This document shows, piece by piece, positions 20,925-21,056 of a stretch of 64,000 nucleotides of DNA. Position 1 is the first letter of the stretch, and each line of letters starts with the position of its first letter. The stretch is from Escherichia coli (GTDB lineage Bacteria; Pseudomonadota; Gammaproteobacteria; Enterobacterales; Enterobacteriaceae), in assembly GCF_016903815.1 (NCBI RefSeq), contig NZ_CP069973.1. One strand, written 5' to 3'. Below the pieces are notes generated by a model, which saw nothing but the letters and a program-made list of their open reading frames with translations, ran no database searches and had not been told where the DNA came from. Position numbers and translations under genes: made by a program.

Positions 20925-20975
20925 AAGATGTCCTCAATTATTCGGTTTGGGTTAGGGCGTTTTTTGCTATCACCC

Positions 20976-20991
20976 TGTGACGTGGATCACA
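20976..20991. promoter_or_regulatory. perfect CRP-consensus palindrome TGTGA-N6-TCACA in the divergent AKR / LysR promoter region
   Basis: tgtgacgtggatcaca read directly in the sequence. Confidence 0.5.
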
Positions 20992-21056
20992 ATACCTTGC
21001 GATGTTGTGACTTGATAGGACATAATTCGTCTGACTTAAGTCCTTTGAGGTCTAAC

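Follow-up and report, generated by a model that had tools for sequence, protein, structure and literature searches.

A perfect TGTGA-N6-TCACA palindrome lies in the gap between a LysR-type regulator gene and the divergent aldo/keto reductase (AKR) operon of an Escherichia coli accessory island, over the predicted -10 element and start of the operon promoter (P_AKR). With about even confidence, we consider it to be a CRP operator that is maintained by selection and that, from this position, would be more likely to repress the operon than to activate it. A sequence-only reading of the window (the whole 64-kb stretch of E. coli DNA analysed here) had reported a perfect palindrome of this type in the 132-bp LysR/AKR gap. 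We confirmed its presence at 20976-20991; both its coordinates and the length of the gap were right.

The island is about 4 kb long and is inserted in the chromosome between nadR and ettA (yjjK), following the annotation of strain 7/2. Its G+C content is 50-57%. Of 5426 complete E. coli genomes, 482 (about 9%) carry it, in single copy and on the chromosome every time. The relevant features of the window are the following.

18285-18497, minus strand: DUF1471 gene.
18655-19071, minus strand: gene for an SRPBCC (Polyketide_cyc2) protein, the final conserved gene of the module.
19097-19894, minus strand: SDR oxidoreductase gene.
19914-20924, minus strand: AKR gene, the first gene of the operon, with its ATG ending at 20924.
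20931-20935, minus strand: Shine-Dalgarno sequence of the AKR gene, GAGGA.
20925-21056: 132-bp intergenic gap between the AKR and LysR genes.
20976-20991, no strand assigned: perfect TGTGA-CGTGGA-TCACA palindrome (TGTGACGTGGATCACA = tgtgacgtggatcaca), centred at 20983.5.
21057-21944, plus strand: gene for the LysR-type regulator (295 aa), with its ATG at 21057.
22125-23473: IS1397 copy, adjoining the lysR gene.

The border of the island on the nadR side (17858-18212) consists of NadS-family and hypothetical pseudogene fragments, and some strains have an extra IS200C near the island. The empty site could be seen in ETEC H10407, in which nadR, the NadS fragment and ettA follow one another in that order.

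The regulator matched NCBIfam models of LysR-type transcriptional regulators (LTTR), its orthologues carry the Pfam domains HTH_1 and LysR_substrate, and its nearest solved structures are 7w06, BenM, CatM and CbnR. The locus forms a divergent LysR-type unit, with a regulator made of a winged helix-turn-helix and a substrate-binding domain, a divergent operon, a shared gap of 132 bp and an arrangement that was kept in the sampled loci. The enzymes were less easily named: NCBIfam and PDB searches gave no match at the equivalog level, and cluster and source names were generic. The nearest solved relatives of the AKR are plant L-galactose dehydrogenases (107 bits at most), and one source names it D-threo-aldose 1-dehydrogenase. 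The SDR matched PDB entry 8g9m (457 bits), a solved homologue without assigned function. In the sampled loci, the module contained no transporter, kinase or aldolase gene, and no further regulator gene travelled with it. A glyoxalase-family gene follows the module in Serratia marcescens (3943-4011 in the fetched loci); in Citrobacter, the next genes encode a BhsA/YdgH-like protein and an Old-Yellow-Enzyme-type flavin oxidoreductase (4075-5403 in the fetched loci). These neighbours hint at reactive-electrophile stress. The gene content favours a small redox or detoxification unit.

The palindrome is flanked by ctatcaccc on the left and ataccttgcg on the right. It was the one perfect TGTGA-N6-TCACA match in the 64-kb window, for which dinucleotide-preserving shuffles gave an expectation of 0.07 (7 of 100 shuffled windows contained a perfect match). 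The chance of a perfect match within a stretch of 132 bp was about 1.4e-4. When one mismatch was tolerated, the window contained four matches for 1.9 expected. Throughout the roughly 650 kb of the 81 fetched loci, perfect matches occurred at orthologous positions only.

To score the palindrome, we used a symmetrised CRP matrix of 16 columns built from the 107 sites in Table 1 of the ETEC H10407 CRP ChIP-seq study (Haycocks et al. 2015, PMC4287617). It reached 19.49 bits of a maximum of 21.89, which would place it fourth among the 107 ChIP-bound sites (median 12.95) and which put it 6 bits ahead of the next-best matches in the window. Among these are the known deoP2 CRP sites, located upstream of deoC, which provided an internal positive control at 12.1 bits (7549-7564) and 13.6 bits (7602-7617), the latter being a site that appears in the H10407 table (PMC4287617). 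Another CRP-like site with one mismatch, TGTGACTACTATCAAA, was noted at 61560-61575 (13.1 bits). A perfect core is present in just 8 of the 107 bound sites (PMC4287617), in agreement with a review stating that real E. coli CRP sites usually depart from the perfect palindrome (PMC10187061). H10407 provided the sole non-K-12 E. coli CRP ChIP-seq data set that we found; as this strain is without the island, its site table served for the matrix only. A full-text literature search for the exact 16-mer returned no paper, and one for the gene combination returned nothing relevant.

Two other classes of operator were considered and rejected. LacI-family operators need a central CG and a spacing of N4-N5, and the spacer is here asymmetric; the palindrome does not match the FNR site (TTGAT-N4-ATCAA). 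Judged from its sequence, its strength and the conservation described below, the palindrome has CRP as its obvious ligand, and it would best be filed as a new, unusually strong and lineage-specific member of the CRP-operator class.

Orthologous loci were collected by a scan of one genome per species, which gave 80 loci encoding a regulator of 70-99% identity. They came from Escherichia, Trabulsiella, Yokenella, Klebsiella, Raoultella, Yersinia, Serratia, Ewingella, Xenorhabdus, Acinetobacter and many Pseudomonas; look-ups of exact proteins added K. pneumoniae, K. aerogenes, two Citrobacter and more Serratia loci. The divergent LysR/AKR layout was kept in the sampled loci, nearly all of which had the complete AKR-SDR-SRPBCC operon. 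Fifteen aligned sequences with a LysR identity of at least 90% made up the enteric-type set. In these 15 loci, which belong to seven genera (Escherichia, Citrobacter, Klebsiella, Raoultella, Trabulsiella, Yokenella and Yersinia), all ten half-site bases were invariant. The spacer took the forms CGTGGA, CGAGGA, CGGAGA, CGGAGC, CGAAGC, CGGCGA and CGGCGC, so that positions 3, 4 and 6 varied while the CG following TGTGA and one spacer G did not. Conserved arms around a free centre are the pattern produced by a dimeric protein reading two half-sites.

The flanking genes provided a measure of the divergence over which this conservation was maintained. Within a 10-sequence enteric set, 24 of 257 four-fold degenerate sites (9.3%) were invariant in the two flanking genes, and pairwise four-fold identity to the window dropped to 36-52%. 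Invariance over the gap itself amounted to 79 of 132 positions, with 22 of 51 in the AKR-proximal third. No enteric-type sequence had an indel between 20968 and 21059; indels were frequent nearer the AKR gene. Since the half-sites are invariant and synonymous sites are saturated, these comparisons indicate that the palindrome is under purifying selection in hosts that contain CRP.

Outside the enteric-type lineage the palindrome was not found. Serratia has CGTCACGAGGCTAAAG in its place, and in Ewingella, Xenorhabdus, Acinetobacter and Pseudomonas it is unrecognisable, the sequences there being unrelated. Matrix scores at the equivalent place, Serratia included, ranged from -2.6 to -29. Residues 1-60 of the regulator, which comprise the winged helix-turn-helix with the whole recognition helix, show essentially no difference between clades, from E. 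coli to Pseudomonas. Because the DNA-binding domain is nearly invariant, yet the palindrome is missing in other clades, the latter would not be the LysR operator. By this distribution it is a lineage-specific addition to the control region of a widespread module of four genes, namely lysR and the divergent AKR-SDR-SRPBCC operon, and is confined to the Enterobacteriaceae-type lineage. In most Pseudomonas loci, the predicted AKR -10 element is closely followed downstream by a strongly conserved GACCGTTGAGCAGATC, at about 100 to 60 bp before the lysR start codon; this sequence may be a lineage-specific operator occupying the place of the enteric CRP palindrome. The Pseudomonas loci also have a motif, TGACCGT/GGACCGT, that is repeated 33 bp off, at -35.

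The position of the palindrome relative to the two promoters rests on the following elements of the gap.

20997-21002, plus strand: -35 hexamer TTGCGA of the lysR promoter (P_lysR), from the promoter scan; TTG is invariant in a 15-sequence all-clade alignment and TTGCGA is the commonest form (42 of 81 loci).
21021-21026, plus strand: -10 hexamer CATAAT of P_lysR, from the promoter scan; present in 75 of 81 loci.
20994-20989, minus strand: predicted AKR -10 hexamer TATTGT, overlapping the right half-site; TAnnnT is conserved.
21012-21017, minus strand: predicted AKR -35 hexamer TATCAA (weak), at 17-bp spacing; the Pseudomonas equivalent is TGGACG.
21006-21010, plus strand: second TGTGA, which falls on the all-clade GAC box at 21009-21011.
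21018-21043, no strand assigned: block (A/G)GACATAAT-N7-ACTTRAGTCC, an imperfect long dyad GGAC...GTCC made of columns that are invariant in all clades.

P_lysR (TTGCGA-N18-CATAAT, predicted start near 21033) was the sole sigma-70-like promoter returned by the scan. The centre of the palindrome falls at -49.5 of this promoter, and the site, spanning -57 to -42, abuts the -35 hexamer. For the AKR operon, the scan detected no promoter above threshold, and the hexamers of P_AKR in E. coli are weak, with 2/6 and 4/6 matches. The predicted -10 element was recognised from its conservation. Its first position is T in 79 of 81 loci, its second A in 81 of 81 and its sixth T in 81 of 81, with positions 3-5 free, and its bases correspond to the invariant columns A30, T34 and A35 of the 15-sequence all-clade alignment. 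Variants include TAATGT, TATCTT, TATATT, TACTAT and TAGTAT, with TAGGAT in most Pseudomonas. The pattern is dominated by 64 Pseudomonas sequences, yet ten distinct hexamers all keep TAnnnT, and we read it as the signature of the AKR -10 element. The weakness of the -35 hexamer fits what is expected of an activator-dependent promoter. From the conserved -10 element, the AKR start is predicted near 20982, which places the palindrome at about -1.5 of the predicted P_AKR, spanning about -10 to +7. The gap is thus predicted to hold two sigma-70 promoters that diverge and overlap, both of them kept from E. coli to Pseudomonas.

Other candidates for elements of the AKR control region were discarded. 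AATAAT (20942-20937) as the -10 element is specific to E. coli and leaves a leader without a Shine-Dalgarno sequence. With the -10 element in the A-rich stretch after AGCA (20966-20961), CRP would be at -29.5, and in E. coli this stretch offers no T at -7. CAGGGT, at the place expected if an LTTR site lies at -65, is not conserved. No sigma-54 promoter was seen by eye, there being no GG-N10-GC at the right spacing, and a leader RNA hairpin (GUCAC-AGG-GUGAU) is present in the window allele only and is not conserved. Two features of the leader were noted in passing. On the minus strand, AGCA followed by A is invariant at a fixed distance from the palindrome in the enteric-type lineage (20960-20968) and precedes an A/T-rich stretch of varying length; in the predicted AKR transcript, this element would occupy about +15 to +23. 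Between the equivalents of 20942 and 20943, Klebsiella, Trabulsiella odontotermitis, Yersinia and Raoultella have an insertion of 15-17 nt with a small hairpin of the TCCCG-nnnn-CGGGA type, which is missing in Escherichia, Citrobacter, T. guamensis and Yokenella. This variation shows that the distance separating the control region from the Shine-Dalgarno sequence is not constrained.

As the helix-turn-helix of the regulator is essentially identical across clades, its operator is expected among the elements that all clades have in common. These are the GAC at 21009-11, (A/G)GACATAAT at 21018-26, ACTTRAGTCC at 21034-43, the promoter hexamers and the Shine-Dalgarno sequence. The block at 21018-21043 is a candidate operator for the LysR-type regulator; it overlaps the -10 element and start of lysR, so that autorepression would be possible. 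A perfect 10-bp palindrome, GACTTAAGTC, lies within it at 21033-21042, at the 5' end of the predicted lysR transcript. Its core, ACTTRAGT(CC), is kept from E. coli to Pseudomonas, and we regard it as a candidate for the core of the recognition site of the LysR protein. Inspection for a T-N11-A dyad near -65 found no clean 15-bp dyad; the conserved boxes (GAC, GGACATAAT and ACTTAAGTCC) extend from about -27 to -61 of the predicted P_AKR and cover the -10 element and start of P_lysR. As predicted from these positions, the layout of the boxes is the classical LysR-type one, in which the regulator would activate its target and repress its own gene.

The second TGTGA of the gap had been proposed by the sequence-only reading as an additional CRP half-site, a proposal that did not hold. 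Matrix scores around it were all negative (-4.1 at best, -8.6 for the TGTGA-phased window), no partner half-site is present, and the pentamer is not conserved as TGTGA, since it reads TATGA(C) in Klebsiella and TAGGA(C) in Yersinia. It is included in a 9-nt direct repeat, TGTGACGTG/TGTGACTTG, whose copies are 30 bp apart. By its position on the conserved GAC, the second TGTGA is probably part of a LysR-protein box abutting the AKR -35 element.

The sign of the effect of CRP would depend on this geometry. CRP represses or activates according to its position relative to RNA polymerase, as stated in one report (PMC5449483), and a review also makes the sign of the effect dependent on position (PMC10187061). 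Since the palindrome lies over the -10 element and start of the predicted P_AKR, occlusion would be expected. We propose that cAMP-CRP would bind the palindrome and that bound CRP would occlude RNA polymerase at the -10 element and start of the LysR-dependent P_AKR. The result would be a cAMP-dependent veto on LysR-mediated induction, with the operon best expressed at low cAMP, and neither promoter would be activated by CRP in a class I or class II manner. It is, to our knowledge, uncommon for a LysR-activated promoter to carry a CRP repressor site of such strength. The spacer contains an invariant CG and G that CRP does not require and that hint at an overlapping second constraint. H-NS occludes strong CRP sites in AT-rich acquired DNA (PMC4287617); with the G+C content of the island at 50-57%, such occlusion of the palindrome would be unlikely.

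Catabolite control of the operon would on this basis be likely, and probably negative. The suggestion that such control is layered on the LysR regulator was therefore partly upheld: the site is strong, conserved, of CRP type and distinct from the LysR operator, which makes a second regulator plausible, but its geometry is not an activating one. The catabolic role hinted at by the sequence-only reading does not follow from the CRP site, given the lack of transporter and kinase genes in the module, the stress and detoxification genes near it and the fact that CRP also represses.

Activation of the AKR operon by CRP was the main alternative. A class I promoter is impossible here: its start, at +61.5, would lie within the AKR coding sequence. 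In a class II arrangement, CRP would be centred at -41.5 of a start near 20942 and the module would be catabolite-repressed in the manner of a catabolic operon. The distance of 59.5 bp between the centre and the ATG permits such a start, with an 18-nt leader holding the Shine-Dalgarno sequence, and CRP sites lie most often near -40.5 (PMC4287617). A catabolic function could also be read from the nearest solved relatives of the AKR, which are sugar 1-dehydrogenases (L-galactose dehydrogenases), and from the name D-threo-aldose 1-dehydrogenase. However, at the required spacing E. coli has the hexamer TAACCC and the orthologues have CGAACC, CGAACT, CTGCCT, GAACTG, TAACCG, AACTGA, ACTGAA or GAATGA; neither an A at -11 nor a T at -7 is conserved, whether at the exact spacing or, judged by eye, a few bp around it. 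No functional -10 element matching a centre at -41.5 is predicted; the next conserved block lies 16 to 19 bp from the palindrome, depending on the sequence, and the well-conserved -10 element sits instead partly inside and partly beside the palindrome. The module is moreover without transporter, kinase or aldolase, and its neighbours elsewhere are stress and detoxification genes. We conclude that activation of the AKR operon by CRP is unlikely, and the class II reading as a whole improbable, on this promoter prediction.

The palindrome might instead be bound by another protein, either as a low-affinity third subsite of the LysR protein or as the operator of some other, lineage-specific repressor. 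The closest characterised structural relatives of the regulator are BenM, CatM and CbnR, and BenM uses a subsite (site 3) that overlaps the -10 element of its target. The left half of the palindrome has GTGAC in common with the box at 21007-21011, 30 bp apart, and at these two places the Pseudomonas loci carry a comparable repeat, TGACCGT, with a distance of 33 bp. A position at -10/+1 is classical for a repressor, and the invariant CG and G of the spacer are unexplained by CRP. Against the LysR subsite, the winged helix-turn-helix is invariant everywhere, whereas the right half-site (and, in most clades, the left one too) is not kept outside the enteric-type lineage. Symmetric conservation around a variable centre fits a dimer of CRP type, and the even N6 geometry is unlike the usual LTTR dyad, which is odd in length (T-N11-A). 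Another repressor is made less attractive by the fact that no additional regulator gene accompanies the module. Binding by either protein in place of CRP thus appears rather improbable to us.

CRP could also bind the palindrome and act mainly on the lysR promoter from -49.5, modulating the level of the regulator, for example through displacement of the alpha-CTD or by favouring P_lysR over P_AKR. No enteric-type locus has an indel between the palindrome and the P_lysR hexamers, and the palindrome abuts the -35 hexamer. The known activating positions of CRP are -41.5 and -61.5, with which a centre at -49.5 is out of phase, and an action on lysR leaves the overlap with the P_AKR -10 element unexplained; we find this reading quite doubtful. 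That the palindrome is a functionless chance match, of the kind seen in 7 of 100 shuffled windows, is very hard to accept in view of its promoter location and of ten half-site bases that are invariant in seven genera in which synonymous sites are saturated.

The reading that we prefer, a selected CRP operator over the -10 element and start of P_AKR, can be set beside known systems. Perfect-core examples among the canonical E. coli CRP sites detected by ChIP-seq are those of ycfQ/bhsA (TGTGATCTGGATCACA), mtlA, caiT and galP (PMC4287617). The palindrome resembles them in its 16-bp core, its top-tier matrix score, its location in an intergenic divergent region and its conserved half-sites around a free spacer. 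Unlike them, the predicted site lies over a -10 element and start, and at -49.5 of the other promoter, rather than at -41.5, -61.5 or -92.5, and it is carried on an accessory island present in 482 of 5426 E. coli genomes. It is closer in placement to CRP-repressed promoters such as pck at high cAMP-CRP, an example cited in a review (PMC10187061), in that it overlaps the core promoter and start and occlusion is expected; it differs from them in that the occluded P_AKR is predicted to be dependent on a LysR activator, and in that repression is here a prediction.

Promoters of the BenM/CatM/CbnR type have in common with this locus a homologous regulator, a lysR gene divergent from its target operon, overlapping promoters and conserved boxes that lie upstream of a weak target -35 element and over the lysR promoter. 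The locus departs from them in having no clearly identified T-N11-A dyad and in having an additional palindrome of CRP type, in one lineage only. Several E. coli operons with an LTTR are co-regulated by CRP, among them dsdXA (DsdC), tdc (TdcA) and hca (HcaR). In these catabolic systems CRP is a co-activator that binds upstream of the core promoter. The combination of a specific LysR-type regulator with CRP would be the same here, whereas the geometry at the AKR operon argues for the opposite sign.

Taken one step further, these data suggest, more tentatively than for the operator itself and at somewhat less than even confidence, that in one lineage of a pan-gammaproteobacterial carbonyl-reductase module, an operator of top strength for CRP was grafted exactly onto the -10 element and start of the LysR-activated promoter, making the module inducible only at low cAMP, when carbon is plentiful. 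This would introduce no new class of mechanism; the element is ordinary in kind and its placement mildly interesting. The predicted negative sign is a warning against taking any CRP site as a marker of catabolism. If confirmed, the site would bring into the CRP regulon an operon of the accessory genome that is also found in Klebsiella, Citrobacter, Raoultella, Yersinia and others. It would offer a natural comparison of a global regulator layered on a conserved LysR-type circuit, between loci with the CRP site (enteric-type) and loci without it (Serratia, Acinetobacter, Pseudomonas). A cAMP veto, if true, would be a clean natural case of a regulon being rewired once a module had been transferred into enteric hosts, and might link the detoxification of reactive carbonyls to glycolytic overflow.
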